Part shown: positions 2,587 to 20,393 of the stretch, one piece after another
Layout: each line of letters starts with the position of its first letter
Numbering within the stretch: position 1 is the stretch's first letter
Origin: an uncultured virus (IMG/VR IMGVR_UViG_3300016471_000568)
Lineage: Duplodnaviria; Heunggongvirae; Uroviricota; Caudoviricetes
Strand: one strand, 5' to 3'
Virus record (IMG/VR): IMGVR_UViG_3300016471_000568
Length of the DNA: 64,000 nucleotides
The notes under the pieces: generated by a model
What the model was told of the DNA's origin: nothing
Databases searched by the model: none
Seen by the model: only the letters and a program-made list of their open reading frames with translations
Translations under genes and position numbers: made by a program

Positions 2587-2618
2587 AAAGAGTGCGGCAG
2601 AAATGTTGCACTTTTTTT
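2587..2618 (+). terminator. intrinsic terminator, GAAA tetraloop
   Basis: AAAGAGTGCGGCA-GAAA-TGTTGCACTTTTT plus T tract. Confidence 0.8.
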
Positions 2619-2681
2619 ATGTTTGTATATTTATTAATATATTAAATAAAATATAGTTTTTAACTAAAATATGGCTGATAT

Positions 2682-4619: not shown

Positions 4620-4641
4620 TATTTATATAAAAAAGTAAAAT

Positions 4642-5016: not shown

Positions 5017-5017
5017 T

Positions 5018-5584
5018 ATGAATTTATTAAACAATAAAACATACAAACGAATACTTAAAGAAGAATTACATAGAGCTCGACGCATTCTGCGCGAATACAA
5101 CGAAGCTGAAATTTGGAAACGTTTAAGGGTGCAACAGCGAAAAGAATTATTAAGTTCTGTAGACGACGATATGGGTCCGGATTTTGCAGATGAATATGCA
5201 GAAACAGATTGGTTGCAAATTCCAGATGCTGTTACTAATCGCATCGATATATCTCGATATACTGCAGATTATGCAAAAAGTGTTGACAAAAGCGCTTTGA
5301 TGTATGCACGCGGTATTTTTGATATCATATATGATAACAAACGATTTAAAAACACCAAACAACTTCAAGATTTTATAGCAAAAGAAATTAGAACACAATC
5401 TACGGATCAAGATTCCATGAAAATGGCTTTAATGCAATATGCACGAGACAATTCCGCTAAAATGATGGATTTAAATATTAAAACACAGCGTATGGCAGGA
5501 ATTCTACCGGCAGCTGGTAGTGGTTTTAGTGGAGCAACAACTCCTAGCACTAACCCATTTAATTTTGGATGGACAGGAGATTAA
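5018..5584 (+). CDS. hypothetical protein (188 aa)
   Basis: ORF tightly packed in operon; ILKEE/ILRE leader. Confidence 0.75.
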   Translation: MNLLNNKTYKRILKEELHRARRILREYNEAEIWKRLRVQQRKELLSSVDDDMGPDFADEYAETDWLQIPDAVTNRIDISRYTADYAKSVDKSALMYARGIFDIIYDNKRFKNTKQLQDFIAKEIRTQSTDQDSMKMALMQYARDNSAKMMDLNIKTQRMAGILPAAGSGFSGATTPSTNPFNFGWTGD

Positions 5585-5793
5585 TGCAACATAAAACGGA
5601 ATTTTTGGCATTGCATGTTGTTAAAATGCATGGTAAATGTGAAAATACTGAATCCGAATTACGTTTTATTAATAGAAATCATATAATGCAAATTCGACAA
5701 GATGGGGATGATGTGATCATAGAATTATCAGATTATGAAAAATTAAAAATACGCAACGAGAACATTCACGTTTTAATGGATCGTTTTATATAA
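5584..5793 (+). CDS. hypothetical protein
   Basis: TAATG overlap with upstream stop and AGGAG RBS favour the start at 5584. Confidence 0.65.
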   Translation: MQHKTEFLALHVVKMHGKCENTESELRFINRNHIMQIRQDGDDVIIELSDYEKLKIRNENIHVLMDRFI

Positions 5794-5829
5794 CATGATA
5801 TTTATATAAAATAAAAAAAAAAGGTTAAC

Positions 5830-6015
5830 ATGACATCGCAAGAAATTTTTGAGCAAATTGAACAACATTGGTTAGTATTTAAAGAAAATCACGAGCGTTT
5901 TACGGATAAAAAAGTTAAAGCTGCTGGAGTTAGAGCTCGCAAATCAATCAATGAAATTAAAAAGTTAGCAAGTAAGTATCGTTCAACACAATTGGCAGAA
6001 TCCAAATCAGAATAA
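5830..6015 (+). CDS. short histone H1-like (Hc1 family) protein
   Basis: KAAGVRARKSINEIKKLASKYR matches the KAAGxRARK core of short Bacteroidota Hc1-type proteins. Confidence 0.7.
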   Translation: MTSQEIFEQIEQHWLVFKENHERFTDKKVKAAGVRARKSINEIKKLASKYRSTQLAESKSE

Positions 6016-6827
6016 TGCACAAAAAACAAGAAATATTAGTATATCACACGCTTCGAAGTATTATACAGGAGCAAGCTGATTCTTCTGCTCCGGCAGATGA
6101 TAGTAAATCGGCGTCTGCTATTGAAACAGACAATTCTGATATATCTGCAAAAGATTCTCCATTTACGCCTGCAGAAGAACGATTTTTAGGTAAATTTGAT
6201 GCATATGGATCTAATCATTTAGGAATCATATATTCACTTTCAGACATTGGTATTCGCGAATTCATTATGCGAAGCGGTAAAGATTTAAACTGCACTCCAT
6301 CAATTTTATTAAAACTATTACGAGATAAAATTGTTAAAATTGTACCATATACGGGTTGGGGGCGTGACAATTCGTATACAATTGAATTACAATTATCATT
6401 AGATGACGTCAAAGGATTGGGTGCTACTGATAAAGAAAAAGCTGAAAAGGGTTCTACAGCATCTGGAGCTGCTGGCGCTGGCGCCGGTCCGAGTGCTGAA
6501 GTTGCTTGGGTTGTACGATATGGAGATTTGTTATCGGAATCTGCAAACATTGCGCAACAATTTATAGTTAAAAATAAAAATAACAGCATTTATTTGACTG
6601 AATCTTATATATCCAACGAAATTCCAAAGCAATACGTTAAACATATGGAATATTTGATTGCATCAATTGGTGATAAAAAATATTCAACTGCTGAAAATCA
6701 ACATTTAATTTCAAATATTTTAAAAAAGCTTCATGAAAATTTTAAATTAACTAGCAAACAAATTTCCGAATCTTATAAAATGCATAAAAAACAAAAACGT
6801 TACGAAAAATTTGCAAACAAAAAATAA
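6015..6827 (+). CDS. hypothetical protein (270 aa)
   Basis: ORF with TAATG coupling and low-complexity Ala/Gly linker. Confidence 0.75.
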   Translation: MHKKQEILVYHTLRSIIQEQADSSAPADDSKSASAIETDNSDISAKDSPFTPAEERFLGKFDAYGSNHLGIIYSLSDIGIREFIMRSGKDLNCTPSILLKLLRDKIVKIVPYTGWGRDNSYTIELQLSLDDVKGLGATDKEKAEKGSTASGAAGAGAGPSAEVAWVVRYGDLLSESANIAQQFIVKNKNNSIYLTESYISNEIPKQYVKHMEYLIASIGDKKYSTAENQHLISNILKKLHENFKLTSKQISESYKMHKKQKRYEKFANKK

Positions 6828-6830
6828 AAT

Positions 6831-6859
6831 TTGGATAAATCAATCAATTTTATTATATT
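6831..6859 (+). promoter_or_regulatory. sigma70-type promoter TTGGAT-N17-TATATT
   Basis: one of six intergenic copies with exact 17-nt spacing. Confidence 0.6.
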
Positions 6860-6891
6860 AATAGTAAGTTATAAATTTTAAAAACAATAAA

Positions 6892-7101
6892 ATGTCGTAT
6901 TACACAGCAAAAATTCAACTAATTGACATGGTTGATACACCAAAAGGCCCAAAAGAAAAACGAACCACTGAAACTTATTTGGTAGAAGCACTTTCAGTAA
7001 CCGAAGCAGAAGCTAAAGTTGTTGAAGATTTTAAAGGTTACACGTTTGATTTTGAAGTTAAATCAGTTTCTGCAAGTAAAATCATTAAAATTATCAAATA
7101 A
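6892..7101 (+). CDS. DUF4494-like protein
   Basis: EKRTTETYLVEALSVTEAEAKVVE resembles the Bacteroidota DUF4494 motif. Confidence 0.65.
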   Translation: MSYYTAKIQLIDMVDTPKGPKEKRTTETYLVEALSVTEAEAKVVEDFKGYTFDFEVKSVSASKIIKIIK

Positions 7102-7385
7102 TGGCAATTTACAAAGAAGGACAAACCGTTGTTGTTACACAAGATGGTGTGAATCGCGTAGGGGTAATATTGGATCGCTATTTGCTAGGCAACAGCAAGA
7201 TGATCGTGTATGATATTTTGTTAGAAAATCGTTCTGCAATCATCATGATCAATACTAATACAAAAGCTAATACTTACATCAATAAAAATTTAACTGCCAT
7301 GTTGTGTGATACTGGAATTATTCAAACTACAATTCCTTACAAACAATTGGTAGCAGACGATGCATTGCCAATCACTAAATCATAA
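7101..7385 (+). CDS. hypothetical protein (94 aa)
   Basis: ORF with TAATG coupling. Confidence 0.7.
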   Translation: MAIYKEGQTVVVTQDGVNRVGVILDRYLLGNSKMIVYDILLENRSAIIMINTNTKANTYINKNLTAMLCDTGIIQTTIPYKQLVADDALPITKS

Positions 7386-7387
7386 TT

Positions 7388-7672
7388 ATGCAACTTGCAA
7401 GTTTAATCAAACGAGTTCAACAACGATATCCTGGTAGTACGTGTATGCAAATTCATGATGAATATCACGTAATATATGCAGATGAAAGTTTAAATGACGC
7501 GTTTTTACTACCAGGTTTTGAAACAGAACAAGAAGCATGGCAACAAATATCACAATTTGTAAAAATGGAACAAAGCATCAACCGTACACATCCGTTAAAA
7601 CAAATGATATCTGAACAAAAGAAGCGAGAAAGTCAAGAACGAATTGCAAATAGAATACAAAGATATGGATAA
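7388..7672 (+). CDS. hypothetical protein (94 aa)
   Basis: ORF in tightly packed operon. Confidence 0.7.
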   Translation: MQLASLIKRVQQRYPGSTCMQIHDEYHVIYADESLNDAFLLPGFETEQEAWQQISQFVKMEQSINRTHPLKQMISEQKKRESQERIANRIQRYG

Positions 7673-8318
7673 AGAAATTATAACAAATAAAATTTTAAAA
7701 AATTTATCATCTAAAGATGATACATGGAATCAATGGGACTTATTACAGCCAACGGATGCAAATTACATGTTGTATAGTCCAAATGCAGTTGGATACAATA
7801 CTACAGCAGAACATCAATTTTTAATGCAAAATTTATTAGTTGGGTATTCTGCAGATCGTTCTATATTAGACATTGGTTGTGGCCGTACGGATTTAGCAAA
7901 CTTTATTGAAGATTTTTATGAACAATCACCTGTATATACGGGAATTGATCACAATCCCGTAATGTCCGATATTGCAAAGAAAAAATACAAACGAGATATT
8001 ATATTAGGTGCATTTGAAACTACAAAATTAACAAAACATGATTGGGTAATCGCATCAGGAGTATTTACGCAGCGTAGATGCGAAACTGAAAATGATGATT
8101 TAAAAAAACTTTTCAATGATATTGACATATTATATAATTTATGTAATGAAGTTGTATCATTTAATTTATTGAGTCCAATAAATACAAAACATCATGAAGG
8201 ATTTCTTTACATACATCCAGGCATCGTAATTGATTTATTGATTGAAAAATATCAGTATGTTATAACTAGATGTAATTATTCAAAAGATGTATATACCGTA
8301 TTAATTAATAAAATATAA
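7665..8318 (+). CDS. class I SAM-dependent methyltransferase
   Basis: SILDIGCG motif I, YTGID, DWVIASGVF; start placed at first ATG. Confidence 0.8.
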   Translation: MDKEIITNKILKNLSSKDDTWNQWDLLQPTDANYMLYSPNAVGYNTTAEHQFLMQNLLVGYSADRSILDIGCGRTDLANFIEDFYEQSPVYTGIDHNPVMSDIAKKKYKRDIILGAFETTKLTKHDWVIASGVFTQRRCETENDDLKKLFNDIDILYNLCNEVVSFNLLSPINTKHHEGFLYIHPGIVIDLLIEKYQYVITRCNYSKDVYTVLINKI

Positions 8319-8320
8319 AT

Positions 8321-8713
8321 ATGACACACAGCATTAATCAGCCATGGGCAATTTCAGAAAAACACGTTACTAGATATGGAGAAACGTGGGCCAACATGGA
8401 TTTTGAATTTGATTCAAAAATATCTGAAAAAAATTTTAAAACAGAACCAATGGAATGTTTTATTGGACATTTGTTAATTTTCAATCAACGTATTGGTATG
8501 CGATATAAAGATTTAATTGCATACTCAAAAAGTATTGATACGTTAGCTAACAATGTTTATGCCAATAAAGCTAAAAAACAAGATGCGTTTGCAGCTGATA
8601 TCAAAGGTAGAACATTAATGTTACGCAAACATGAAATTGGAAAATTAGCACAAACTTTATCAGATGCGTTGGATTGTGCTATGCGCAAATATGAGTTAGG
8701 TTTATATTTATAG
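8321..8713 (+). CDS. hypothetical protein (130 aa)
   Basis: ORF in operon. Confidence 0.7.
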   Translation: MTHSINQPWAISEKHVTRYGETWANMDFEFDSKISEKNFKTEPMECFIGHLLIFNQRIGMRYKDLIAYSKSIDTLANNVYANKAKKQDAFAADIKGRTLMLRKHEIGKLAQTLSDALDCAMRKYELGLYL

Positions 8714-8724
8714 TAAAAATAATC

Positions 8725-8916
8725 ATGCATCGCGAAGCAACGTTTGTATATTTTTTTAAAACAGATAAAAAACAAGAAACCATTGGTAGTGTTATGGCTT
8801 TTTCAAAAAAAGAAGCTATAACTAAAATAGCAATAATCAAACAGTTGCCAGAAGTTGAAATTGATCGATTATTCATTGTTAAATTAAAACGAGGTAAATA
8901 TGAAAACGATCTTTAA
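8725..8916 (+). CDS. hypothetical protein (63 aa)
   Basis: ORF in operon. Confidence 0.6.
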   Translation: MHREATFVYFFKTDKKQETIGSVMAFSKKEAITKIAIIKQLPEVEIDRLFIVKLKRGKYENDL

Positions 8917-9364
8917 TAAAATATATGTATCAAAATCTGAATATTCAATGTTTAAAATAATGCGTACATCTGATCAGTTACGATGGTTGTTTGAAACATA
9001 TGATGCAGCAATTACACAAACAAATACACTCGATTTATCTAAGTTTTTTAATGATATTAAAGAAAATCTAGAACAATATAATACATCTTTATTAGAGTAT
9101 GATAACAATACTCATATGATTCAAAATGATTTACCTGCAGATAATAGTATAGATTTTGTTGATGTATTAGTTGATGATAAAAATATATTACTAGAATCAA
9201 ACAGCCTTAAGGCATTGCGATACGTTAAAAACAAATTTTTTGAATCTGGATACATGTTGCAACGAGATTTGGCAACAGAAAAACTGTTTCGAAAAGATAA
9301 AACAACTCGTTACATTCGTGTATTTCGTATTATTAATCACGTAAATTCAATGTGTCTTAATTAA
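8900..9364 (+). CDS. hypothetical protein (154 aa)
   Basis: ORF with GAGGT RBS. Confidence 0.7.
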   Translation: MKTIFNKIYVSKSEYSMFKIMRTSDQLRWLFETYDAAITQTNTLDLSKFFNDIKENLEQYNTSLLEYDNNTHMIQNDLPADNSIDFVDVLVDDKNILLESNSLKALRYVKNKFFESGYMLQRDLATEKLFRKDKTTRYIRVFRIINHVNSMCLN

Positions 9365-9924
9365 TGGCAAAAAAACAACAAACACCCGACGATATCATCA
9401 AACAGTTTGAAAAACCACAATTTTCAATTGCAGATGCGGTATTTTTTACTTGGTTAGGTTCAAAAAAATATGGTTATATTACAAAAATTAAAAAAACTAC
9501 ATGGGGTGTTATGTACACGGTTGAATCGAATAATACGCGTTATCCGTGCGGTGTTTCGATTAAAGGGTATAAAACAGCGTATACAACGGGATGCATCGAC
9601 GTCGATGAAACTAGATCCATTGAACGAGATACATTCAAGACACGCATCCAAAACGGACATACAAGCACATATACAGAGCTTTTTACAGACACCGGAAGGA
9701 CGACGCATGAAAGCAGAAGCAAGTCTAACGTTAGCGAATACATATCTGTATCAAATCATAAATCAGTTAAATCGACCCGAATTAACAATACGAGAAAAAA
9801 TGCTGTTAAATCTAGCTCTAATGGAAATAATGCAGGAACTAAAAAAGAACGAAAAAATATTGAACTCGATGCCGCAATACAACGACAACGAAATTTTTTG
9901 AATGGATTTGTATCAAATGATTGA
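9364..9924 (+). CDS. hypothetical protein (186 aa)
   Basis: TAATG coupling; beta-rich N-terminus and basic, disordered C-terminus. Confidence 0.7.
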   Translation: MAKKQQTPDDIIKQFEKPQFSIADAVFFTWLGSKKYGYITKIKKTTWGVMYTVESNNTRYPCGVSIKGYKTAYTTGCIDVDETRSIERDTFKTRIQNGHTSTYTELFTDTGRTTHESRSKSNVSEYISVSNHKSVKSTRINNTRKNAVKSSSNGNNAGTKKERKNIELDAAIQRQRNFLNGFVSND

Positions 9925-9930
9925 TGTTGG

Positions 9931-9959
9931 TTGGAAATTATAAATTTATTTTTTATTTT
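9931..9959 (+). promoter_or_regulatory. sigma70-type promoter TTGGAA-N17-TATTTT
   Basis: same class as 6831, 13200, 14673, 39623, 56915. Confidence 0.5.
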
Positions 9960-9985
9960 AAAAAAAACAAATAATTAATAAATTT

Positions 9986-10543
9986 ATGAAAACAATTGCA
10001 ATTATATTTACATTATTAACATTCTACGGATTTAGTCAGGATATCGATTATCAAAAATATACCAATGGGTATAAAACAGATTCATTTCCGTTAACGGGTA
10101 GCTATTTGACACAATGGAAACTAGATAGTGCAAAATTTGATAAATTGATTAGTACTGATTCAATTGAATACTATCTTTTAATTAAGTTTAATGAACTACG
10201 CAAATCACAAAAATTAACATCATTATCATTGTATGTCAATGATTCTGCTTATGTAAAATGTAATAATTGGGCAAACTATTTATTAGCAACGAAAAAAATG
10301 GGACACAATGGCGAAGCATATGAAATTGCAGCTGGTATTATATTTGATTTTAAACGATCTGCAGCCATTAATAAATACATTGCTGAAGAACTTTATAATA
10401 AATGGATAAATTCGCCTAGTCACAAACTTGCTATATTGAATCCAAATAAAAAATATATGATATCTTGCAATCAATGTAAATATTATTATGGAACTCCATT
10501 TTTTAGTAAAAAATTAGTAGGATTGGTAAGATTTTTTGAATAG
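9986..10543 (+). CDS. exported CAP/SCP-domain protein
   Basis: Sec signal peptide MKTIAIIFTLLTFYGFSQ; FNELRK...LTSL; KWINSPSHKLAIL (WxxSPxH CAP motif). Confidence 0.75.
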   Translation: MKTIAIIFTLLTFYGFSQDIDYQKYTNGYKTDSFPLTGSYLTQWKLDSAKFDKLISTDSIEYYLLIKFNELRKSQKLTSLSLYVNDSAYVKCNNWANYLLATKKMGHNGEAYEIAAGIIFDFKRSAAINKYIAEELYNKWINSPSHKLAILNPNKKYMISCNQCKYYYGTPFFSKKLVGLVRFFE

Positions 10544-10544
10544 T

Positions 10545-10574
10545 AAAAAAGGTTGCAGAAATGCAACCTTCTTT
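10545..10574. terminator. bidirectional terminator between convergent genes
   Basis: AAAAAAGGTTGCA-GAAA-TGCAACCTTCTTT. Confidence 0.8.
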
Positions 10575-10589
10575 ATGTTATTTTAATTA

Positions 10590-12707
10590 TTAATTATATG
10601 CATCACATATATGTACTAAATTTTCTGCAACACCGCCACCGGATAATAGTCCCAATCTAGGCAATTTAAATCGTTTAATTTTTCTTTTAAATCGTTTCCA
10701 TCTAGATTTAATTGAATATTTAAAATCACCGAATGAAACATAAGTATAATCTAAACTAAAAAACCATTTACCGGCAGTTTCAATTTTAGCATCAATTTCT
10801 TCTGTTGGAGGAGTTGGTGGTATCTCTGGTTTTTTTGTATAAAATAATACATATCCTGCATACGTACCTCGATGTGGCCCAAATATAGTTTCATATTCTT
10901 GTTGAAGCATTGCTGGTGTCGGTATTGGCTCATCTTGATACTTGTACATAAATGTACGTTTAAACGTTTCATAAGCCGTACTATTATTACGACCTGCATA
11001 AAAATATCTAGGTGTTACTTTGTCGACGTTATCGTCTTTTTCTTCTTGTTTAAATCCTTTATAGTATTTATTGTATAACGGCCCATATCCATTGCCATAT
11101 GTTTTTCCACTAGCATCGGCGGTTCCAGTTGGATCATACTCATACCAACCTGGACCTCGATTCGGATGTAAATTTGGGTCTTTTAATGCTTTAGCGCCCT
11201 CTGCTAGCGCTGGTAGCAATTTATCAATCACCGGTTTCATTCCCGTCGTAATACCCTCCGCACGTGCTTTACATAATTGTATGTTTCCTTGTGTTTTTTC
11301 AGCTGAAGATGGATTTTTGGATTTTGAATACTTAAACGTACCCACGGTACTAGATCTAGCACCTGCATTATATTCAATTCGATAAATTTCGCCACCATTG
11401 TTAACAATTGCATCAATGCGACGTTTCATTTCTGCCTCGAACGCAGTAGTATTCGACCATGTTGTTTCATCATCTCCGTTTCCATATATAACATTCTGCG
11501 ATGCTGGATCGTTTGGATTATCTGGATATGAATAATATGATGCGTATGCTTCTATTTGACTGCCATCTGCTTGTTTTTTTTGTACTTTTAGTAAATTAGC
11601 TTTGATTTCAGCTGCACCCGGAGCTATATAAAATGATGTATAATCTTGCCATGTTAATGACGGAACCGCTTCTACATTTTTACGATGTTGTTCTAGAATT
11701 CTAGGGAGCATATCGATTTTATCTTGAGGAGTCATTTCTACGGAATATGTTGAAGACCCCCCTTCTTCACCACCGGCGCCTGCGGCTCCTAAAACTAATT
11801 TAGTAGCAAAATTTTGCAACCTAGCTAAGTCTCGTTTCATATCATTATAAAAAAGATTCGGGTCTGGGTTTTCTTCGTCTCCCATTTTATTGTATTCAGC
11901 AGCTAACTTCGTAAGAAATGTATTATCAATTGTATATGTAACTCCATTTGGATCTTTTCCTGTAGCAACTGCAGTAAATAACCAATTTAAAGCTGATGAT
12001 GCATCATCAGAAAATATTTCCATTAAATCTTCGCCAGATAAGAAAATATTTTGTTTCTGCATTTCTTGTAATTTTTCTATGAAACTAGATATATTTAAAG
12101 TATATGATTCGGCTGTTGTGCTTGCAATTGGTAGATCATTAATTGCGCTCAATGTTTGTATTACAGTTGACATTTGATTTTCGGCAGCCGGATCTGCCTC
12201 CCCACCTAAAACTTTAGCACCATACCAATACATTATGGTACCTTCATCTCGTGTACGTTTAGTATACATTAAATCAAGAACTTCTTTATATCCACCTGTA
12301 TTTTTTACTTCATCGGTGTCTTTTGCTTCTAATTCTGCGCGTGACGGCAAACCTTTCTTTTTTAACCACCTTTTAGTTCTCCATTGTGCCCATTTTACCA
12401 TTAATGGCATTGATTGTATTTTTCTTCGTACTCTACTTTTTAATCTTCGAAGCCCCCTTTGACCATAAACCGTACTTTGGTCAGCGTCTAAAGTTTGATC
12501 TGGGTCTGGGGTTGGTGGGTCGGTTGGTTTTTCTAAAAGTAATTTTAGGTTTGTAGATTCAACTAATTCACCATATTCATTAATGTATGTGTAATCAGAA
12601 TAAAAATCTTTTTTCGATTTATTTTGAAGTAAAATTAATTCATTTTCATTTAAATTTTTTACTCCAAATCTTAGCATATTTTCTGCTAGAATATTATGTA
12701 AACTCAT
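10590..12707 (-). CDS. large ENMLRF-leader protein with possible OmpA-like C-terminal domain
   Basis: start moved to MSLHNILAENMLRFG (AAAGGAA RBS); GNIQLCKARAEGI resembles the OmpA N-x-x-LS-x-x-RA motif. Confidence 0.75.
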   Translation of the reverse strand: MSLHNILAENMLRFGVKNLNENELILLQNKSKKDFYSDYTYINEYGELVESTNLKLLLEKPTDPPTPDPDQTLDADQSTVYGQRGLRRLKSRVRRKIQSMPLMVKWAQWRTKRWLKKKGLPSRAELEAKDTDEVKNTGGYKEVLDLMYTKRTRDEGTIMYWYGAKVLGGEADPAAENQMSTVIQTLSAINDLPIASTTAESYTLNISSFIEKLQEMQKQNIFLSGEDLMEIFSDDASSALNWLFTAVATGKDPNGVTYTIDNTFLTKLAAEYNKMGDEENPDPNLFYNDMKRDLARLQNFATKLVLGAAGAGGEEGGSSTYSVEMTPQDKIDMLPRILEQHRKNVEAVPSLTWQDYTSFYIAPGAAEIKANLLKVQKKQADGSQIEAYASYYSYPDNPNDPASQNVIYGNGDDETTWSNTTAFEAEMKRRIDAIVNNGGEIYRIEYNAGARSSTVGTFKYSKSKNPSSAEKTQGNIQLCKARAEGITTGMKPVIDKLLPALAEGAKALKDPNLHPNRGPGWYEYDPTGTADASGKTYGNGYGPLYNKYYKGFKQEEKDDNVDKVTPRYFYAGRNNSTAYETFKRTFMYKYQDEPIPTPAMLQQEYETIFGPHRGTYAGYVLFYTKKPEIPPTPPTEEIDAKIETAGKWFFSLDYTYVSFGDFKYSIKSRWKRFKRKIKRFKLPRLGLLSGGGVAENLVHICDAYN

Positions 12708-12727
12708 GTATTCCTTTAAATATAATT

Positions 12728-13138
12728 TTACAACTGCTGCCAACTATCGCCATCAAGATCTAAAGAATCTGAAGCAACACCGTGCTTTTTAAATATGTTT
12801 AAATTTCTATTGAATTTCTGAAGCGCTCGTTTAAACGTTTGTGGGTTATGTATTTTTTTCCTATTATGTCTTCGTTTAAGTCTTCGAATATATCGAGATA
12901 AATTCATTCCTTTTCGTTTTAATAGTTTAGCTAATCGATCGAATGGCCCTGGGTCAGTTTCGTCTGCATTAACTAATTCCATTTCCAATGAATCCAATTC
13001 TGTATCATCAACGTCGTCGTTAGTATTATCAACTTGTATATCTTGATCAAGATCTTGTTCAAGAATTAGTCGATCTAATGTTGTTAAGTTTTTTGCTTTA
13101 AATCTTAGCATATTTTCTGCTAAATTTATTTTTTTCAT
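12728..13138 (-). CDS. ENMLRF-leader protein (136 aa), acidic then highly basic
   Basis: MKKINLAENMLRFKAKNL; AAAGGA RBS; late box upstream. Confidence 0.8.
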   Translation of the reverse strand: MKKINLAENMLRFKAKNLTTLDRLILEQDLDQDIQVDNTNDDVDDTELDSLEMELVNADETDPGPFDRLAKLLKRKGMNLSRYIRRLKRRHNRKKIHNPQTFKRALQKFNRNLNIFKKHGVASDSLDLDGDSWQQL

Positions 13139-13158
13139 ATATCCTTTATTTGTTTCAT

Positions 13159-13207
13159 ATAAATATTACGCAAAAAAAAAAATACAAAAAAAAAACGATT
13201 TGGATTT
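13159..13207. repeat. 49-bp direct repeat copy 1 (divergent promoter unit)
   Basis: ATAAATATTACGC-A11-TAC-A10-CGATTTGGATTT, identical to 14632-14680. Confidence 0.9.
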
Positions 13208-13228
13208 ATGAAACTAATTTCATATTAT
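13200..13228 (+). promoter_or_regulatory. sigma70-type promoter TTGGAT-N17-TATTAT
   Basis: exact 17-nt spacer. Confidence 0.6.
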
Positions 13229-13262
13229 CATAATATAATTAACCAGTTAAAAAATTAAAGTC

Positions 13263-13826
13263 ATGAAAAAGTTATTGTTTGTATTCATATTAGTTTCTAA
13301 CATAGTTGTTGCACAACAACAAACCGTTGTAGGAACAAATATTCCATGGTATTCTGATATCATAAAATATACATTGCCAGATCCAGATGCTAAAGATTTG
13401 TTATCTTCTTTAATTGAAGTAGTTGCAATAAATGAAATTGATTATTCTAAAAGATTGGTTTTCTTAAACGAAGATTCTGTTTTAGTAAATTTTGAAAAGT
13501 CGTTAAATGAAATGCGAGCTCAATATCATCAACCTCCATTAAAACATAATGACTCAATATCAAAAAGCATAAAATACACTTATGAAAATGGATTACCAGC
13601 CGAATTTTCAGATACTTATTACCTTTTAGAACCCGTACTATATCAAAATATCGTAATAAATTTTGATAATAAAGAAAAAGCTTATTGTGATTATATTATT
13701 GATTTAGCAACTATGACCGATATGGATTTTTTTGAAATGACAGACTCAACTGCTTTAGAATATGGATTCTACTTTGATGATACGGTATATGAAGGTGTGT
13801 ATGCTGTGATTATTGTCGTAAAATAA
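13263..13826 (+). CDS. exported protein with degenerate CAP-like domain
   Basis: signal peptide MKKLLFVFILVSNIVVAQ; LNEMRAQYHQPPLKHNDSIS resembles the CAP N-terminal motif. Confidence 0.65.
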   Translation: MKKLLFVFILVSNIVVAQQQTVVGTNIPWYSDIIKYTLPDPDAKDLLSSLIEVVAINEIDYSKRLVFLNEDSVLVNFEKSLNEMRAQYHQPPLKHNDSISKSIKYTYENGLPAEFSDTYYLLEPVLYQNIVINFDNKEKAYCDYIIDLATMTDMDFFEMTDSTALEYGFYFDDTVYEGVYAVIIVVK

Positions 13827-13839
13827 AATGATTTATTGT

Positions 13840-13886
13840 TTTAATAATAAAATTAGGACGCCGGACGCCCTAATTTTATTATTAAA
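13840..13886. terminator. long inverted repeat / bidirectional terminator between convergent genes
   Basis: TTTAATAATAAAATTAGG ... CCTAATTTTATTATTAAA, 18-bp perfect arms. Confidence 0.75.
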
Positions 13887-13896
13887 CATTTTCTAT

Positions 13897-14580
13897 CTAT
13901 TCAGGTGTATATGTGCCTGCTACACCCGGTGCTTTTAGCATAGATGCGTTAGCTAATAATGTTGTTCTCATATCCATCCCATATGGATCGATTCTATACA
14001 ATTTACCGCCGCCGGATGCAACTAAATTTGATAAACTTGGATAATAAAATACATTAGTTAGTTGCCCTCTTTTGATGATTTTTCCATTATAACTATATTT
14101 TCCATCTAAAAGTTGTTGTAATTTTGTTTGGTCCCATTCGGTTTCTGATTTTTGTAGTGACATTAACATACTCGAATCGTCAAAATACATCGATGGACAA
14201 AATGCTACTGTGTGGCTTGGACTTGGCACAAATTTTGAACCTTTTGCTAAAACATGAAATCCGCTTCGGCCCGCAATACCACTGCATACTATAATTTCTG
14301 GATTAACAAATGATGAATTTTTCTTTATTATTCCAATTGCTAATCCATTTCGTATAGCTTCGTTTTCTCCAGCTAATGCATTTTTTGCCGTCTTCATCCA
14401 GTCTGGGTCTTTTGGAAAAGCTCCCTCGGGCTCTTCCATTAATCGATATTTAACATGTTCATGCAAACCATGTTGGTTGATGGTTTCCATGATTGATTTA
14501 AGTATTAATTCTCTTTGTGCTGCTTCGGATAAATTTTTGGTGCCAAAACGAAGCATGTTTTCTGAAAGTAAATTTTTCAT
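13897..14580 (-). CDS. ENMLRF-leader protein (227 aa)
   Basis: MKNLLSENMLRFGTKNLSE; AAAGGA RBS; late box upstream. Confidence 0.8.
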   Translation of the reverse strand: MKNLLSENMLRFGTKNLSEAAQRELILKSIMETINQHGLHEHVKYRLMEEPEGAFPKDPDWMKTAKNALAGENEAIRNGLAIGIIKKNSSFVNPEIIVCSGIAGRSGFHVLAKGSKFVPSPSHTVAFCPSMYFDDSSMLMSLQKSETEWDQTKLQQLLDGKYSYNGKIIKRGQLTNVFYYPSLSNLVASGGGKLYRIDPYGMDMRTTLLANASMLKAPGVAGTYTPE

Positions 14581-14631
14581 TTATTATTTTTCCTTTATGA
14601 TTTTTAATATATATGTTTCAATGTTACAATA

Positions 14632-14680
14632 ATAAATATTACGCAAAAAAAAAAATACAAAAAAAAAACGATTTGGATTT
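14632..14680. repeat. 49-bp direct repeat copy 2 (divergent promoter unit)
   Basis: identical to 13159-13207, including the A11 and A10 tracts. Confidence 0.9.
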
Positions 14681-14701
14681 TACATTTTTTTTACATAATA
14701 T
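14673..14701 (+). promoter_or_regulatory. sigma70-type promoter TTGGAT-N17-TAATAT
   Basis: exact 17-nt spacer upstream of uvsE. Confidence 0.55.
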
Positions 14702-14715
14702 AAAATAAAACATAT

Positions 14716-15741
14716 ATGATTCGTTTTGGTTATGCTTGTATCAACATGGAGTTATCTGCGCACGGCATTCGCACCGGCCGTGCCATGATTGATCGCAAAT
14801 TCAAGCTTGGTGGCTTACGGCTTGCAGCTGACATTGCACTTGCCAATGCCCGTGATTTACTTGCTATTCTGCAATGGAATGAAGCACATGGTATACGATT
14901 GTTTCGGTTAGGTTCCGAGCTCTTTCCACGTTGGAATCATTACGAACTTGCTGATTTGCCTGACATTGATCTTATTGTGCAGCATTTACGTTCTGCAGGT
15001 GATTATGCTCGCGCACATGGGCATCGCATCACAACACATCCTGGTCCATTTCATATTCTTGGTAGTCCCGATGCTGTTGTTGTTGATAATTCTATCGTTG
15101 GTCTTGAACGACATTCTGAGCTCTTCGATATGATGGGTTTTGCACCTAGCTTTGAGAACAAGATCAATATTCACGTTGGTGCTACTTACAATGATAAGCC
15201 TGGTACTATTATGCGATGGTTGCATAACTATGATCGTTTATCAGATTCTTGCAAGGCGCGTTTGGTTATTGAGAATGATGACAAGGCATCTATGTATTCG
15301 GTGCGCGAGTTGTATGAAATGTTGCATGCTGAGATTGCCATACCCATTACATTTGACTATTGGCATCACACTTTCAATACTGGTGACTTGTCCGAACAAG
15401 AAGCATTCTTTATGGCTCGCGAGACATGGCAGCGTCATGGTGTTACTCAATGCACTCATTACAGTGAATCTCGACGACGCGAAGCACAAATTCTTATTGA
15501 GCGTATGTTTGCTCATCACAACATTGACATTGCTGATTTACCCAAATGGCCTACCTTTCACAAACAATACAAAGAGTTTACCAAGATCAAGGAGCAGGCT
15601 CATGCTGATTATATTACACGGCTTCCAGACACGTACGGCGTAGCTGATCTTGATGTTATGGTTGAAGCAAAAGCAAAAGAACAAGCATTGCTCAATTTAA
15701 ACGTTGAATGTTGTAAAAATACGCAATTAATTTTAGAATAG
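14716..15741 (+). CDS. uvsE: UV DNA damage endonuclease
   Basis: RFGYACIN, GIRLFRLGSELFP, ITTHPG, INIHVG, LVIENDD, TFDYWHH, HYSES, AHADYI, VMVEAKAKE. Confidence 0.95.
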   Translation: MIRFGYACINMELSAHGIRTGRAMIDRKFKLGGLRLAADIALANARDLLAILQWNEAHGIRLFRLGSELFPRWNHYELADLPDIDLIVQHLRSAGDYARAHGHRITTHPGPFHILGSPDAVVVDNSIVGLERHSELFDMMGFAPSFENKINIHVGATYNDKPGTIMRWLHNYDRLSDSCKARLVIENDDKASMYSVRELYEMLHAEIAIPITFDYWHHTFNTGDLSEQEAFFMARETWQRHGVTQCTHYSESRRREAQILIERMFAHHNIDIADLPKWPTFHKQYKEFTKIKEQAHADYITRLPDTYGVADLDVMVEAKAKEQALLNLNVECCKNTQLILE

Positions 15742-15785
15742 TATATTTATATATAAATAATATTAATAATATAAAAAGGTTATTT

Positions 15786-15968
15786 ATGAAAGCAGATTAT
15801 CGCTATAAAGCAAAAATTACGGATGATATTGCAGATGCACATGAAACAATTCGCGTAACAGCTAAGGCTTTAAATGAAGGAAAACTTGATAAAGCATCTG
15901 CACTTGACAATTTGGCTCGTGCAATGAAAAAATTAGAAGCAGCAAAATACTATATTGACCGAGGATAA
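15786..15968 (+). CDS. hypothetical protein (60 aa)
   Basis: ORF with AAAGGT RBS and TATTTATA box. Confidence 0.65.
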   Translation: MKADYRYKAKITDDIADAHETIRVTAKALNEGKLDKASALDNLARAMKKLEAAKYYIDRG

Positions 15969-17005
15969 TGGCAAAACGATTTCCGTATCTTGTATTAGCA
16001 GCAGCATTCGGTTTGGCTGCAAGTGCAGCATATTATAGCGTATTTGGTTTAAGCAAATTGTTTGCATCGCAAGCAACTTCCGTAATTATACTTGCATCTA
16101 CATTGGAAATTTCCAAACTCGTAACTGCATCATATTTGCATCGTTATTGGTCTGAAATAAACAAATCAATGAAAGTTTATTTAACTAGTGCCGTTGTGAT
16201 TTTAATGATGATTACGTCATTAGGAATTTATGGATTTTTAGCATCATCATACCAAGACACGGCATATCGATTGCAAAATCTAGAAACTATTGTTGACAAT
16301 CAACAAAACAAACAACACAGATTTCAAACACAATTGGATGCAGTAACTCAAGAAAAACAAACGGTTGATAAAAATGTAACACAACTAACTCAAGCATTAT
16401 CTAGCAATCAAAATCGTTATGTAGATGCTAAGGGCAACCAAATCGTAAAAACTGATGCTGCAAATCGCAAGACATATGAAAAACAATTGGATATTTCCAT
16501 GCAGCGTTTGCATGAATTAACTAAGCGAGAATCGGCATTATCGGATTCGGTAACTGCGATAGATTTAAAAATTGCAGATCTGCAAACAACGTCCGATGTT
16601 GCAGCAGAAATAGGACCATTAAAATACATTGCAAAGATAACCGGAAAATCTATGGATTCAGTAGTCAATTGGTTGATTATCATGCTCATCTTAGTATTTG
16701 ATCCATTAGCTATCATATTGCTAGTTTCTGCTAATAGAATTTTACAACATAACACTCAAAATATCATTAACAACATCAATCCTACGCAGGATAAACAATC
16801 TCTGCAGGCGGAGCGGTCGGAAGCAACCGAGGAGAGACCAGCCGAGAGGGTTAAAGCCCCAACTCATGCTTCCGACACTGAAATTGAACATCAACCAATT
16901 TATAAACACGGATTTCAAGTAAAACAAGAAACTCCAGCAACTCCGCAAATATTATCATATTGGAATAAAACAAGAAGCGATCGTGAAAAGAAACGTAAAA
17001 AGTAG
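15968..17005 (+). CDS. membrane protein with long coiled coil
   Basis: about three N-terminal hydrophobic segments, coiled coil, C-terminal TM (WLIIMLILVFDPLAIILL). Confidence 0.8.
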   Translation: MAKRFPYLVLAAAFGLAASAAYYSVFGLSKLFASQATSVIILASTLEISKLVTASYLHRYWSEINKSMKVYLTSAVVILMMITSLGIYGFLASSYQDTAYRLQNLETIVDNQQNKQHRFQTQLDAVTQEKQTVDKNVTQLTQALSSNQNRYVDAKGNQIVKTDAANRKTYEKQLDISMQRLHELTKRESALSDSVTAIDLKIADLQTTSDVAAEIGPLKYIAKITGKSMDSVVNWLIIMLILVFDPLAIILLVSANRILQHNTQNIINNINPTQDKQSLQAERSEATEERPAERVKAPTHASDTEIEHQPIYKHGFQVKQETPATPQILSYWNKTRSDREKKRKK

Positions 17006-17006
17006 T

Positions 17007-17150
17007 ATGGTCCCTAGGGGCTTTAAAAAGTTACAATGCAAATATTGCAATGAAATTTGTCAAAAAGTAGATGTAAATGCAACTGCAGTTACATGTTATA
17101 AGTGTGTATCTAAATTAGTTAACGGCAACCAATTGGAAATACGAAAATAA
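17007..17150 (+). CDS. small zinc-ribbon protein (47 aa; not in ORF track)
   Basis: MVPRGFKKLQCKYCNEICQKVDVNATAVTCYKCVSKLVNGNQLEIRK, two CxxC pairs; in-frame GTG at 16983 is an alternative start. Confidence 0.7.
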   Translation: MVPRGFKKLQCKYCNEICQKVDVNATAVTCYKCVSKLVNGNQLEIRK

Positions 17151-17166
17151 ATCAATATAATAAGTT

Positions 17167-17943
17167 ATGTTACAAGCAGAAAAAATCAAATCAAACTGGG
17201 AAAGATATCGTGGATTAGTTGATCAGTTCTTCCCTACCCGGAAAGATGCATTAAATCGAATGTATGATGCATTTGAAGACCGTATGGTAATGATGCCAGC
17301 ATCTTCCGTTGCACATTATCACAATGCATTTGCCGGAGGTTATGTGGATCATGTACTTCGCGTAATGGATTGTGCGTTAACTTTGCATAATACATGGATG
17401 GTGTGTGGAGCTGATATGTCTGGTTATACTGAAGAAGAATTGTTGTTTGCAGCAATGCATCATGATTTAGGCAAAGTAGGTTTTCCAGGAGATGGTAATG
17501 AAGTATATCAAGTAGAAACTTCGGATTGGCATCGCAAGAATCAAAACAAAATGTATCGACACAATGAAAACATTCCATTTACCATGGTACCGGATCTTTC
17601 AATTTGGTTGCTGCAGGAATATAATGTTAAAATGTCTTGGACGGAATATCAAGCAATTAAAATTCATGATGGAATGTATGATGATGCAAATAAACCGTAT
17701 TTTGTTGCTCGATCAGCACAAGCCAAATTAAAAACAAATCTTCCTATCATTTTGCATCACGCAGATCATATGGCAGCACAAATTGAATATGAACGTTGGA
17801 GAAATCGAAATAACGAATCACCTAAACCGGTTTCTGAAAAAAATAAAATACAAAAATCTGCAGTATTAAAAAATCTTGCAGAAAATAACCCAGATGTAGA
17901 ACAAGCAATAACAGATATTTTTAAAGCATTTAACGGAGAATAA
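17167..17943 (+). CDS. HD-domain phosphohydrolase (YhaM-like HD)
   Basis: PAS..YHNAFAGGYVDH, HHDLGKVG, IHDG, LHHAD. Confidence 0.85.
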   Translation: MLQAEKIKSNWERYRGLVDQFFPTRKDALNRMYDAFEDRMVMMPASSVAHYHNAFAGGYVDHVLRVMDCALTLHNTWMVCGADMSGYTEEELLFAAMHHDLGKVGFPGDGNEVYQVETSDWHRKNQNKMYRHNENIPFTMVPDLSIWLLQEYNVKMSWTEYQAIKIHDGMYDDANKPYFVARSAQAKLKTNLPIILHHADHMAAQIEYERWRNRNNESPKPVSEKNKIQKSAVLKNLAENNPDVEQAITDIFKAFNGE

Positions 17944-17944
17944 C

Positions 17945-18250
17945 ATGATATTTTTGATTGTAACAAGTATACTTTTACTAGGAATTAGTACGTATTTAGG
18001 ATATCGAGCTTGGTATCTTGCGGGTGTATTGGGTGATATTCAAGAACAATCTGATGAATACATTAAAAAATTAGAATTTACTAACAAATATATGTATTCG
18101 CAAATTGTACAATCATATGAAAATATGAAACGCATCGATCATTTAGGAGCGTTTAAATCTGAAGATGAGGCGGGAACTACATTTCATATATTATTTGAAA
18201 CTATAACCAATTTAAAGGAAGAATTTGATGTCGAAGATCAAGAAAAATAA
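17945..18250 (+). CDS. membrane-anchored hypothetical protein
   Basis: N-terminal hydrophobic helix; GGAG RBS. Confidence 0.7.
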   Translation: MIFLIVTSILLLGISTYLGYRAWYLAGVLGDIQEQSDEYIKKLEFTNKYMYSQIVQSYENMKRIDHLGAFKSEDEAGTTFHILFETITNLKEEFDVEDQEK

Positions 18251-18923
18251 ATCATATTTTACTAAAATAACAGATTTAGCAATTTCATCATATAATAAAA
18301 GTACGGATCTAGCATTGCGAGAAAAAATTTATCGAAGATTTATTTATCCAGCGTTCATGAAACTTACTGAAAATATTATTAATAAAGTTAAACCCGATTA
18401 TATTGATTCTTCATTTCAGGATTTACAAACCGATCTAGTTACGTATTTAACAGCTCGATTAGATAAATTTAATCCAGAAGCAGGAAAGGCATATTCATAT
18501 TATACAAGAACATCATTTAATTATTTAATTGCAGAAAATCAAAAAGGTTATGCAAAAATAAAATCTGATATGTTAGAAATTAATATTGATGAACAACGAA
18601 ATGTTGTTACTGAATTACATAACGATGAAATGCAAGAAACGTTACGAGAATTCATGGATGCATATGTTGAATATTGTTATAAAAACATTAATTACATTTT
18701 TACAAATCCTACAGATATACATGTAGCAGATTCAGTATTACATGTTTTTCAGTTTCGAGATCAAATTGACGATTACAATAAAAAATCATTGTATTTACTT
18801 ATACGAGAGCGTACTGGATTAGAAACTACAAATATTACGCGTGTTGTTAAAACATTAAAAACAATATATGATAAAAAATTTTACGAATACGAACAAACAG
18901 ATTTCATAAAATTGCCTTTTTGA
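18228..18923 (+). CDS. phage sigma factor (T4 gp55-like late sigma)
   Basis: LDKFNPEAGKAYSYYTRTSFNYLI resembles sigma region 2.3-2.4; C-terminal helix-turn-helix-like segment. Confidence 0.65.
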   Translation: MSKIKKNKSYFTKITDLAISSYNKSTDLALREKIYRRFIYPAFMKLTENIINKVKPDYIDSSFQDLQTDLVTYLTARLDKFNPEAGKAYSYYTRTSFNYLIAENQKGYAKIKSDMLEINIDEQRNVVTELHNDEMQETLREFMDAYVEYCYKNINYIFTNPTDIHVADSVLHVFQFRDQIDDYNKKSLYLLIRERTGLETTNITRVVKTLKTIYDKKFYEYEQTDFIKLPF

Positions 18924-18946
18924 TATTTATTTTAAAGGTCTCATGC

Positions 18947-19381
18947 ATGGATAAAAATGATGAAATATTTAAAGGAACAACTTTTTCAGATTTAATGTCC
19001 GATGTTTATCACAATTCAAAAAAGAAAGACCGACAAATTAATCAACTTATTGCACAACTTCAACCATTGATTAAGAATGCATCTGATGCTACCATTATTG
19101 TTCCTTTAATTAAAGAATATTTAGATGTTGCAGTTAAAAATGATGATCATTTAGTTAAATTAACTGCAATTGTTCAACGCTATATTTCAACCAAGCAAAC
19201 AATATCTGGAGCAGATGGATTACTTAGTGACGAAGAAAAACAACAACTGCTTCGCGTTGCCGAACAAACATTGTCTGCAGAATTAACAGATGAATTAGAT
19301 TCAATTGAACAAGAATCTGATGCATTGAAACGGCGCATTGAAAACTCAATGAATAAAACTAAAAAGGATGTAAATGAATAA
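18947..19381 (+). CDS. helical hypothetical protein
   Basis: ATG downstream of TATTTATT box and AAAGGT. Confidence 0.7.
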   Translation: MDKNDEIFKGTTFSDLMSDVYHNSKKKDRQINQLIAQLQPLIKNASDATIIVPLIKEYLDVAVKNDDHLVKLTAIVQRYISTKQTISGADGLLSDEEKQQLLRVAEQTLSAELTDELDSIEQESDALKRRIENSMNKTKKDVNE

Positions 19382-20393
19382 TTTTTCAGAAATTAAATAT
19401 TCAAATCCAATTCGAATGTATATAGGTGAAGTAATAGCTGAACCATCTACATTAACATATAAACAAAATATTAACAATACAAAAAAAAATAAAATTTATG
19501 AAATACGTTGTAATTTAATTTCAAATGATGTTACTAAAAATCCATGTACTGCATATCCTGCTAATATCAATATACAAAAAATTCCACTAATTGGAGAGTA
19601 TGTTTTATTATTTCAAGCATATTCTGATGATTCTAGATATACATCTAAAAAACCAAATTGGTATTATTTATCTGACATTTCTATCTTAACAAATTTAAAT
19701 AACAATTCAGTCCCAGGAATATCAGGAGAATCGTTTGAAAATTCTAGTATTGGGGCAACATTTGAAGAACAATCGATTAATTCATTACAACCATATGAAG
19801 GTGATATATTAATTCAGGGTCGTTTTGGTAATAATATACGAATAGGCAGTACCGTAACTAATTCAAATACGTATGATCGACAACCAACTTGGACATCTAA
19901 TAATAACGGAGATCCTATTATAATTTTATCAACTAATAAAAATAGAAACAATACATCATTTTCTATAGAACATGTTGAAACAGATTTAGCATCATTATAT
20001 TTAACAAGTACGCAACATTTAAATGAACTAAAAATTACTAAACCATTAACGATACATAATGTTTTTAATGGGTCGCAGATGGTTGGGATTGCAGATCGTA
20101 TTATACTTCGAGCTAAAACGGATATTGCTGTTATAGATTCTCAAGAAGGAATTGTATTAAATACTCCAAACAACATTTATATCGGAGGAGAAGAAGCAAA
20201 TCAACCATTAGTACATGGCGACGTACTATTGGATATATTAAATAAAATAATAGATCATATTGAATTTGTACAAATTGAATGTGGAGAATTAATAGGCGGA
20301 TTTAAATCAAAAGATTCAATAAAAACTGCAAGAGAAAAATTATCTGATTTACTTAGTTCAAAATATCGAATGGAATTTAATCCACGTAAATAA
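19374..20393 (+). CDS. baseplate hub/central spike protein (gp5-like)
   Basis: IPLIGEYV OB-fold motif, EGDILIQGRFGNNIRIG, QPLVHGD; located before gp25/gp6. Confidence 0.55.
   Translation: MNNFSEIKYSNPIRMYIGEVIAEPSTLTYKQNINNTKKNKIYEIRCNLISNDVTKNPCTAYPANINIQKIPLIGEYVLLFQAYSDDSRYTSKKPNWYYLSDISILTNLNNNSVPGISGESFENSSIGATFEEQSINSLQPYEGDILIQGRFGNNIRIGSTVTNSNTYDRQPTWTSNNNGDPIIILSTNKNRNNTSFSIEHVETDLASLYLTSTQHLNELKITKPLTIHNVFNGSQMVGIADRIILRAKTDIAVIDSQEGIVLNTPNNIYIGGEEANQPLVHGDVLLDILNKIIDHIEFVQIECGELIGGFKSKDSIKTAREKLSDLLSSKYRMEFNPRK

Follow-up and report, generated by a model that had tools for sequence, protein, structure and literature searches.

Why does a phage that reads almost all of its genes from one strand keep a few on the other, running tail to tail into genes for exported proteins? 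We addressed this question for positions 9,931 to 14,701 of a 64,000-nucleotide (nt) stretch of the uncultured virus IMGVR_UViG_3300016471_000568 (this whole stretch is called the window). Two convergent cassettes lie there side by side. In each, a plus-strand gene for an exported protein, of 185 or 187 amino acids (aa), is separated by a hairpin from one or two minus-strand genes, and all three minus-strand proteins begin with ..(A/S)ENMLRF(G/K)xKNL. We call this N-terminus the leader, the leader-bearing proteins cargo and the exported proteins partners. The window has 69 non-overlapping open reading frames (ORFs) of at least 50 aa, 64 on the plus strand and five on the minus strand. The five are the three leader genes and two doubtful ORFs (60 and 65 aa), so that the earlier note on this DNA was right to call the leader genes the only convincing minus-strand genes. 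We found that the cargo–partner pair is very probably a mobile unit and that the leader is conserved and selected as a peptide.

The cargo–partner pair as a very probable mobile unit

Natural variants of the locus point to mobility. An 18.7-kb viral contig (G001), 99% identical to the window, aligns to positions 129-13207 and 14594-20310. Its two alignments overlap by 83 nt at a 49-nt repeat, which the window has in two identical copies (13159-13207 and 14632-14680), and the contig therefore lacks exactly the cassette of the 187-aa partner and the 227-aa cargo (cassette 2). Contigs of two runs from two other studies (X5, depth 259, and X6, depth 21) extend from 9000 to 13167 and then continue at 14672; cassette 2 is present in runs of a further study, from which the window may come. 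Together with G001, these joints thus define the insertion/deletion (indel) unit as one partner gene, its hairpin, one cargo gene and one repeat copy, 1473 nt in all, and the crossover joint is the repeat, itself a two-way promoter region. The earlier note had proposed a polymorphic, exchangeable module, and this is what we see: cassette number and content vary, and cassette 2 is inserted or deleted at the repeat between genomes of 99% identity. Another run (X7) has a joint from 10599 to 14601 that skips 4001 nt (the cargo/partner block save the CAP gene) and is anchored by only 20 letters at one end. A second joint, of low depth, connects 12661 and 14685 with 20 foreign letters in between. 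Both are too weak to use; they may represent further variants of the locus.

The anatomy of the locus agrees with the convergent layout described in the earlier note. In cassette 1, a promoter-like region with TTGGAA at 9931 (9931-9985, plus strand) lies 5' of the gene for partner 1, an exported CAP-domain protein of 185 aa (9986-10543, plus strand). It is followed by hairpin 1 (10549-10570, from folding), by the 705-aa cargo gene (10590-12707, minus strand; its start is an ATG lying 36 nt within a 717-aa ORF) and by the 136-aa cargo gene (12728-13138, minus strand), whose product has an acidic N-terminal half and a very basic C-terminal half. A late-promoter box, TATTTATA, serves this 136/705 gene pair (13158-13165, read from 13165 to 13158 on the minus strand). 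In cassette 2, TTGGA(A/T) at 13200 (plus strand) precedes the gene for partner 2, an exported protein of 187 aa whose likeness to CAP is unproven (13263-13826, plus strand). Then come hairpin 2 (13840-13886), with 21-nt arms that are 95% complementary, and the 227-aa cargo gene (13897-14580, minus strand). The note had each unit end in an identical 49-bp repeat, and each copy lies in a promoter region beside a cassette: copy 1 has the late box at one end and TTGGA at the other, and copy 2 lies 5' of both the 227-aa gene on the minus strand and the UvdE gene on the plus strand. This gene, for a UvdE ultraviolet-damage endonuclease (14716-15741, plus strand; PF03851, E 5.5e-57), forms the right border of the slot. 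The left border is a conserved 186-aa gene without a Pfam or NCBIfam family (9364-9924, plus strand).

Two scans of IMG/VR yielded 26 distinct leader-encoding loci. UvdE flanks the slot in most of the related loci, and homologues of the 186-aa gene (MAKKQ..FFTWLG..KYGY) flank it in L001, L002, L008, L012, L015, L018, L020 and L024. Between these borders about 20 related phage contigs have one to four units, each unit being one to three leader genes tail to tail with one partner gene. We counted 45 units in the window and 24 IMG/VR loci, some of them near-identical and two duplicate fetches being left out, and in 38 units a convergent partner gene is present. Of the seven units without a partner, six lie at contig ends and the seventh is followed by UvdE, which leaves 38 of 39 uncut units paired.

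Cargo and partner families co-occur in these units. After removal of L004, L007, L014, L016, L026 and L027 by dereplication, 33 units with partners remained. Among them are 18 unit pairs with the same cargo family, and 15 of these 18 share the partner family too, as against 0.89 on average and at most 7 in label shuffles of the 33 units (0 of 5000 reach 15). The statistics ignore common descent; the recurrence of the same pairs in different positions and combinations is the better argument. All four contigs with the 227-type cargo (the window, L002, L005 and L006) pair it with the 187-type partner, and this pair adjoins UvdE in three of them and the 186-aa gene in L002. Likewise, a close CAP homologue accompanies the 705-type cargo in the window, G001 and L036; the 136-aa cargo is kept in G001 (135 aa) and missing from L036. 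Within a partner family, median identity is 62% when the cargo family is the same (15 pairs) versus 29% when it is different (11 pairs). Thus, cassette number and content vary across relatives and the two families travel together, in line with the exchange envisaged earlier.

The two genes of a pair appear to be controlled separately. TTGGA is found 5' of 29 of the 33 partner genes of the dereplicated loci and is followed there by a conserved ATATTAT and an untranslated block. The TTGGAW promoter noted ahead of both plus-strand genes was found at 9931 and 13200. In the window this composite also precedes other plus-strand genes (7 sites versus about 2 expected) and therefore represents a general non-late promoter class. 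For the earlier-expressed periplasmic partner of the earlier note, signal-peptide-like N-termini and the non-late promoter class both speak in favor, and these do not distinguish early from middle expression. The hairpins between the convergent genes are terminator-like on both strands. Hairpin 1 folds with -13.9 and -16.5 kcal/mol on the two strands (z -5.1 and -6.2) and hairpin 2 with -19.2 and -24.9 kcal/mol (z -6.5 and -8.1), and none of 200 shuffles folds equally well for either hairpin on either strand.

The leader and the proteins that carry it

The ENMLRF motif does not occur in the six frames of the 64 kb beyond the three leader-gene N-termini, and a hidden Markov model (HMM) of the leader, run on the N-termini and the full-length ORFs of the window, gave no fourth hit. 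The 705-, 136- and 227-aa proteins are alike in the leader only; past it we found no similarity among the three, as had been claimed. The 227-aa protein has 221 matching proteins, about 22 of them full-length. Most of the other 120 listed matches share the first ~50 residues (57-92% identity) and are then fully diverged. The leader comes in a minimal form of ~20 aa (..LL(S/A)ENMLRFGxKNLxE) and a long form of ~50 aa. In the long leader of the 227-aa protein, L/I-x-E occurs at 5-7, 17-19, 30-32 and 47-49. Across the 120 listed proteins, [LIVM]-x-E is found at 5-7 in all 120, at 17-19 in 117 and at 30-32 in 109. It also stands at the end of conservation (44-54) in all 120, L47 and E49 being at least 90% conserved, and short-leader variants end in the same manner (e.g. 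..RRLTE, ..LILE). The density of [LI]xE per 100 aa is 8.9 in the leader versus 0.41 in the cargos. Selection acts on the peptide: in the 12 core codons of 43 leader genes, 3477 differing codon pairs are synonymous versus 1463 non-synonymous, and four codons are in use for Arg and five for Leu.

Outside the slot, leader genes were met once only, in a complete 159.6-kb relative that also has three within it. This extra leader gene (91 aa) and a neighboring 130-aa gene (N-terminus MIKLKNLL..E) lie near an HNH-like gene in L033 (G002:C1:60500-62500; 843-1118 and 1148-1540, minus strand). A search of 185,579 species-representative bacterial genomes gave no leader gene, DNA and protein searches of a phage collection found no leader carrier among cultured phages, and the ENMLRF motif was not found in the literature searched. 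A UvdE search of the phage collection returned one distant uncultured record only. In L009, L010, L022 and L025, plus-strand ORFs of 419-761 aa without ENMLRF lie just past the last cassette. These ORFs form one cluster (c19) and begin with short N-termini ending in hydrophobic-x-E (e.g. ..KIIE, ..KLAE, ..LLNE); judging from these ends, they may be cargos with a shorter leader.

What follows the leader matches no known family in our searches. An AlphaFold2 (AF2) model of the 227-aa protein (predicted local distance difference test (pLDDT) 84) consists of a ~50-aa leader with low-confidence helices, a disordered linker with residues 43-53 at the boundary, and a confidently predicted compact domain (58-227). 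A Foldseek search of this model against PDB and BFVD found nothing at E of at most 0.001, and a wide VIA search gave Z of at most 3.5, with leader helices only. This outcome is compatible with a new toxin fold. ESM Atlas structure matches for the cargo were set aside, the Atlas's own model being poor (pLDDT 0.36). The 705-aa protein has no Pfam, PHROG, NCBIfam or PDB sequence match, and its family is rare: there are 22 matches among 1.84 billion representatives, some with the leader and some without. No cassette protein had an NCBIfam or PHROG match above noise. Pfam found no family in the three cargos of the window or in 40 cargos of relatives, and among 65 further leader-bearing or homologous proteins it found none in 62 and sub-threshold hits in three. 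Of the 44 mature cargos analyzed, 27 have an isoelectric point of at least 8, and no cargo among them has a hydrophobic stretch of transmembrane (TM) grade.

Two features of the genome suggest a destination for these proteins. The late box TATTTATA stands ~15-25 nt 5' of the portal, scaffold, baseplate and further structural genes. The earlier note had assigned a late box to the ENMLRF genes; the 136-aa gene has the exact box upstream, and the 227-aa gene has a form with one mismatch, TATTTATT, within the 49-nt repeat. Across the loci, 35 of the 38 first leader genes have TATTTAT on their 5' side, and 16 of the 38 have the full octamer there. Moreover, the window encodes a prohead protease of the T4 gp21 family (55916-56545, plus strand; PF03420 Peptidase_S77, E 4.3e-32), whose gene sits between the portal gene (52391-54232) and the scaffold and major capsid genes. 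According to excerpts of PMC9026906, T4 gp21 cleaves after L/I-X-E and the propeptides that serve as capsid targeting sequence (CTS) have 10-19 aa. The CTS takes T4 internal proteins into the prohead core and is then removed, and it is the only part common to the internal proteins of T-even phages, which are encoded in a variable hotspot (excerpts of PMC9026906, PMC3012670 and PMC12373910). As the genome also has an S77 protease, the leader is most simply read as functionally analogous to the T4 CTS. Judging from the motifs and from this analogy, the leader proteins are probably capsid-targeted cargo. The claim that they are virion-loaded thus stands as an inference from the boundary motifs, the S77 protease, the late box and the likeness to the CTS.

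The genomic setting is that of a T4-like myovirus with a G+C content of ~30%, encoding a large terminase, a portal protein, a Gp23-type major capsid protein and baseplate wedge proteins. Its DNA is found in freshwater and lake metagenomes, and the longest contig that the protein collection records for proteins of the window has 160,994 bp. The closest cultured phage is Flavobacterium phage vB_FspM_immuto (59% identity in the capsid protein), and the host of the virus is probably a member of Flavobacteriia. Within the head module, two proteins (56545-56922 and 56952-57422, plus strand) have hydrophobic-x-E at residues 9-11 (..FILE) and 15-17 (..GLQE). From these motifs they could be further substrates of the prohead protease; the leader HMM does not match them. 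A 79-aa bS21 homologue (57432-57671, plus strand; PF01165, E 1.4e-11) lies amid the head genes between the prohead protease and scaffold genes. Elsewhere in the window, a 1048-aa ORF (40590-43736, plus strand) matches SbcD-like (residues 12-345) and SbcC-like (373-1046) PHROG families and appears from these matches to encode a fused SbcCD-like nuclease. Positions 1-2000 have a G+C content of 42% versus ~30% elsewhere, with a proline-rich 60-aa ORF at 204-386 (minus strand).

Exported partners and competing explanations

The earlier note had described both exported proteins as CAP-like, and this holds for one of the two. The 185-aa partner, which has a hydrophobic signal-peptide-like N-terminus, matches PF00188 with E 4.8e-6 (27.8 bits versus a cut-off of 21.1). 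In its family (9 sequences) G106, H107 and H146 are invariant, and the sources of its homologues label these YkwD or CAP. By sequence, it is a member of the CAP/SCP superfamily. The 187-aa partner has no Pfam hit. Its family (19 members at 54-82% identity) contains two members with a faint CAP match (best E 0.14) and has no invariant His. An hhalign comparison with CAP gives a probability of 81% over columns 1-99 only, signal peptide included, and the Atlas offers a lead to CAP at 0.92. The AF2 model is poor (pLDDT 51) and unfit for a fold search, and the family alignment had no hits against PDB profiles. The two partners are indeed highly diverged from each other, with no BLASTP similarity (E 0.81). 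In relatives, the partners include CAP-like proteins, rhomboid proteases, membrane proteins of 65-83 aa and several unknown secreted families. Rhomboid PF01694 was found in five partners (E 5e-11 to 3e-16), among them L013:8646-9251, L015:4523-5275, L021:4597-5172 and L024:8646-9239, all on the minus strand. By a crude hydrophobicity rule and by eye, we identified signal-peptide-like or TM segments, from which all partners seem to be directed to the envelope.

For the locus as a whole we propose an analogue of the internal-protein hotspot, with injected capsid cargo and with exported partners serving exclusion or immunity; as a complete explanation, it stands at about even chances. The minus-strand cargo genes would be transcribed late. 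The leader would act like the T4 CTS and bring each protein into the prohead core, and the gp21-type S77 protease would cut the leader off, and up, at the L/I-x-E sites. The variable, mostly small and basic C-terminal cargo would then remain in the head and reach the next host together with the DNA. The partner gene would be read from its TTGGA-type promoter rather than from a late box, the two-way hairpin separating the pair, and cargo genes and partner would be gained, lost and shuffled together by recombination in the repeated two-way promoter region. Finally, the partner, made in the infected cell and bound for the envelope, would block the matching cargo, or its envelope target, of a superinfecting phage. 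In this scheme packaging, cleavage, ejection, timing and any relation between cargo and partner are all things that we infer.

A cognate function of the pair in exclusion or immunity is a tentative part of this scheme. Cargo that waits in the cytoplasm to be packaged cannot meet a periplasmic partner in the producing cell. If the two are matched, they should therefore meet when a later phage injects into the infected cell, and exclusion or immunity is then the most economical reading. The narrower version, in which head-packaged cargo acts at the envelope during entry and the exported protein neutralizes that cargo type or its target, we regard as somewhat unlikely. The partner need not bind the cargo: for the rhomboid partners, whose cargos have no TM segment, a model in which both members act on the same host envelope component fits better. 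The predicted complex of mature cargo (50-227) and mature partner (19-187), run with alignments and without controls, scored 0.00, which is neither for nor against binding.

Several observations weigh against the proposed scheme. The N-termini of T4 ipII and ipIII, taken from the T4 record, resemble the leader only in the final hydrophobic-x-E; the leader is therefore an analogue of the T4 CTS and not a member of the T-even internal-protein family. It is also longer (20-50 aa), and L/I-x-E is a short motif. [LI]xE exceeds expectation in partners (56 vs 38) and in other genes (895 vs 644). The idea that mature cargos avoid [LI]xE beyond composition was dropped (38 observed, 39 expected). Nor does the leader resemble the N-termini of this phage's head proteins, as its HMM gives E 6.2 for the major capsid protein and no hit in the scaffold. 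Mimicry of the capsid-protein N-terminus or the scaffold C-terminus by the leader was likewise dropped (best E 0.16). Seventeen of the 44 cargos are not basic, and phage immuto has neither a leader gene nor UvdE. Against a direct interaction of cargo and partner in particular, rhomboid intramembrane proteases accompany soluble cargos, the P1 partner occurs with cargos C5, C10, C11 and C15 and CAP with C2 and C26/27, and the co-occurrence counts are not corrected for shared descent.

In an alternative that we consider unlikely, the cargo is injected, probably for anti-defense like T4 Ip1-3, and the partners are unrelated accessory genes with a physical link only. Because the recombination joints lie in shared two-way promoter regions, a cargo gene and the neighboring plus-strand gene would be exchanged together in any case. 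The indel joint within the promoter repeat and the conservation of both promoter types at every cassette border fit this well, as do the rhomboid partners beside soluble cargos and the partner family that is found with several cargo families. Excerpts of PMC12373910 also describe the known T4 internal proteins as working in the cytoplasm against GmrSD nucleases, with no envelope partner needed. A purely physical link is harder to reconcile with the nearly strict alternation (38/39), as the architecture demands no plus-strand gene between cargos and T4 ipII and ipIII are arranged in tandem. Nor does it account for partner sequences that track the cargo type (median identity 62% vs 29%), and envelope direction of every partner would be an odd bias for random accessory genes. 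An explanation that removes the leader from the virion altogether, making it a degron, a peptide with a role in translation or regulation, or a tag for some other place in the cell, is barely credible. The lack of similarity to the T4 CTS and to the head proteins of this phage would suit it, and against it stand the selection on the peptide, the L/I-x-E that marks the very end of conservation in all 120 listed proteins, the late boxes, the S77 protease in the genome and the restriction to phage contigs.

Two other explanations keep a relation between the members of the pair. In a strict polymorphic toxin/immunity system, the contractile tail would deliver a cargo toxin to the periplasm, and the partner would be the periplasmic immunity protein of infected or kin-infected cells. 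The trafficking-type conserved N-terminus, the hypervariable C-terminus, the linked envelope-protein gene and the cassette polymorphism within populations are all of this kind. We nevertheless hold it to be improbable, as no known toxin or enzyme domain was found in the three window cargos and 40 of relatives, 62 of the 65 further proteins are without a Pfam family, and the immunity-like gene is convergent instead of co-directional downstream. The partners are also better conserved than the cargos: between the window pair and those of L002, L006 and L005, partner identity is 83, 80 and 57% and cargo identity is 52, 42 and 46% in the same contigs. Rhomboid and 65-83-aa TM partners are unlike classic immunity proteins as well. 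Alternatively, the leader might be a tail or baseplate adaptor for variable receptor-binding or envelope-acting proteins, the partner blocking the matching receptor. The model for this is phage T5, whose receptor-binding protein is paired with the Llp lipoprotein. A conserved N-terminus with a variable C-terminus, late expression and an adjoining, oppositely oriented gene for an exported protein are shared with such a system, and several cassettes per genome could mean several adhesins. The ~20-aa minimal leader and disordered linker, in contrast, offer too little for a docking domain to be stable, protease-type L/I-x-E motifs crowd the leader, and the cargos are mostly small, basic and soluble, one having only 109 aa when mature. 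The window also already holds a large block of baseplate and fiber-like genes on the plus strand, and we therefore rate an adaptor as very improbable.

Relation to known systems and biological meaning

The reading as injected capsid cargo with exported partners finds its closest counterpart in T-even IPI, IPII, IPIII and Alt and their ip hotspot, where unrelated, mostly small and basic proteins share a leader ending in L/I-x-E. As in T4, the genome also codes for a gp21-family protease and the genes lie in a hypervariable hotspot. Even the neighborhood is alike: in T4 denV adjoins ipII and ipIII (L034, NC_000866 60000-70000, 4940-6416) and here UvdE adjoins the cassettes, although the two repair enzymes are non-homologous. 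The leader differs from the T4 CTS in being unrelated in sequence, 20-50 aa long and endowed with three or four L/I-x-E instead of one. Unlike the T4 ip genes, the genes here lie opposite to nearly all others and belong to phages of freshwater Bacteroidota-type instead of enterobacterial hosts. Moreover, their units come with a convergent gene whose product is an exported or membrane protein, an arrangement that the ip loci of the T4 record lack. The earlier note had recognized no described system; the T-even hotspot is such a system in part, and the paired exported partners are new. Among the papers that a literature search on T4-like internal proteins and superinfection exclusion brought up, none describes paired cargo/exported-partner cassettes, as far as their listings and the opening lines of their abstracts show. 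Within that scope, the leader family, its length and multiple protease-type motifs, the strict coupling to a convergent partner and the documented cassette indel would all be new.

Other known systems resemble the pair in part. Superinfection exclusion is represented by the T4 gp5 lysozyme and periplasmic Spackle, by T4 Imm and by T5 pb5 and Llp. In these, too, one phage encodes a virion protein acting at entry and an envelope protein blocking later phages, and the 65-83-aa TM partners are of the size of Imm. Here, however, the virion protein would be variable head cargo, and the pairs are modular and polymorphic, with several to a genome. Polymorphic toxin/immunity systems include periplasmic effectors of the type VI secretion system (T6SS) with signal-peptide-bearing immunity proteins, as well as MuF-type phage-head toxins. 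They share with our cassettes a conserved N-terminal delivery module, a hypervariable C-terminus, a linked partner gene and cassette exchange. They differ in that the cargos here have no recognizable toxin or enzyme domain and that the partners, CAP and rhomboid proteins among them, are convergent, hairpin-separated and under their own promoter. With CAP/SCP/PR-1 proteins (PF00188, bacterial YkwD-like), the 185-aa partner shares a match above the Pfam threshold and the conserved His. Unlike the usual CAP proteins, it is phage-encoded and coupled to a cargo gene.

Internal proteins, being injected, are the first phage molecules that a cell meets, and in T4 they serve as anti-restriction factors. 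To our knowledge they are almost unknown outside the T-even phages. The ENMLRF leader offers a sequence rule that flags hundreds of candidate injected proteins of freshwater Bacteroidota phages, of unassigned fold and function. The locus is also a clear case of natural cassette exchange at a defined repeat, and the variants that have or lack cassette 2, both of which occur in nature, make the pairing directly testable. The consistent tie to exported or membrane partners, CAP and rhomboid proteins included, is seen in no described ip locus. If the pairs are cognate, they would constitute a new class of phage–phage exclusion modules and give a role to phage-encoded CAP and rhomboid proteins. Cassette swaps would then change both the proteins that a phage injects and the phages that it excludes, amounting to a polymorphic, capsid-loaded form of kin discrimination similar to T6SS effectors and their immunity proteins.

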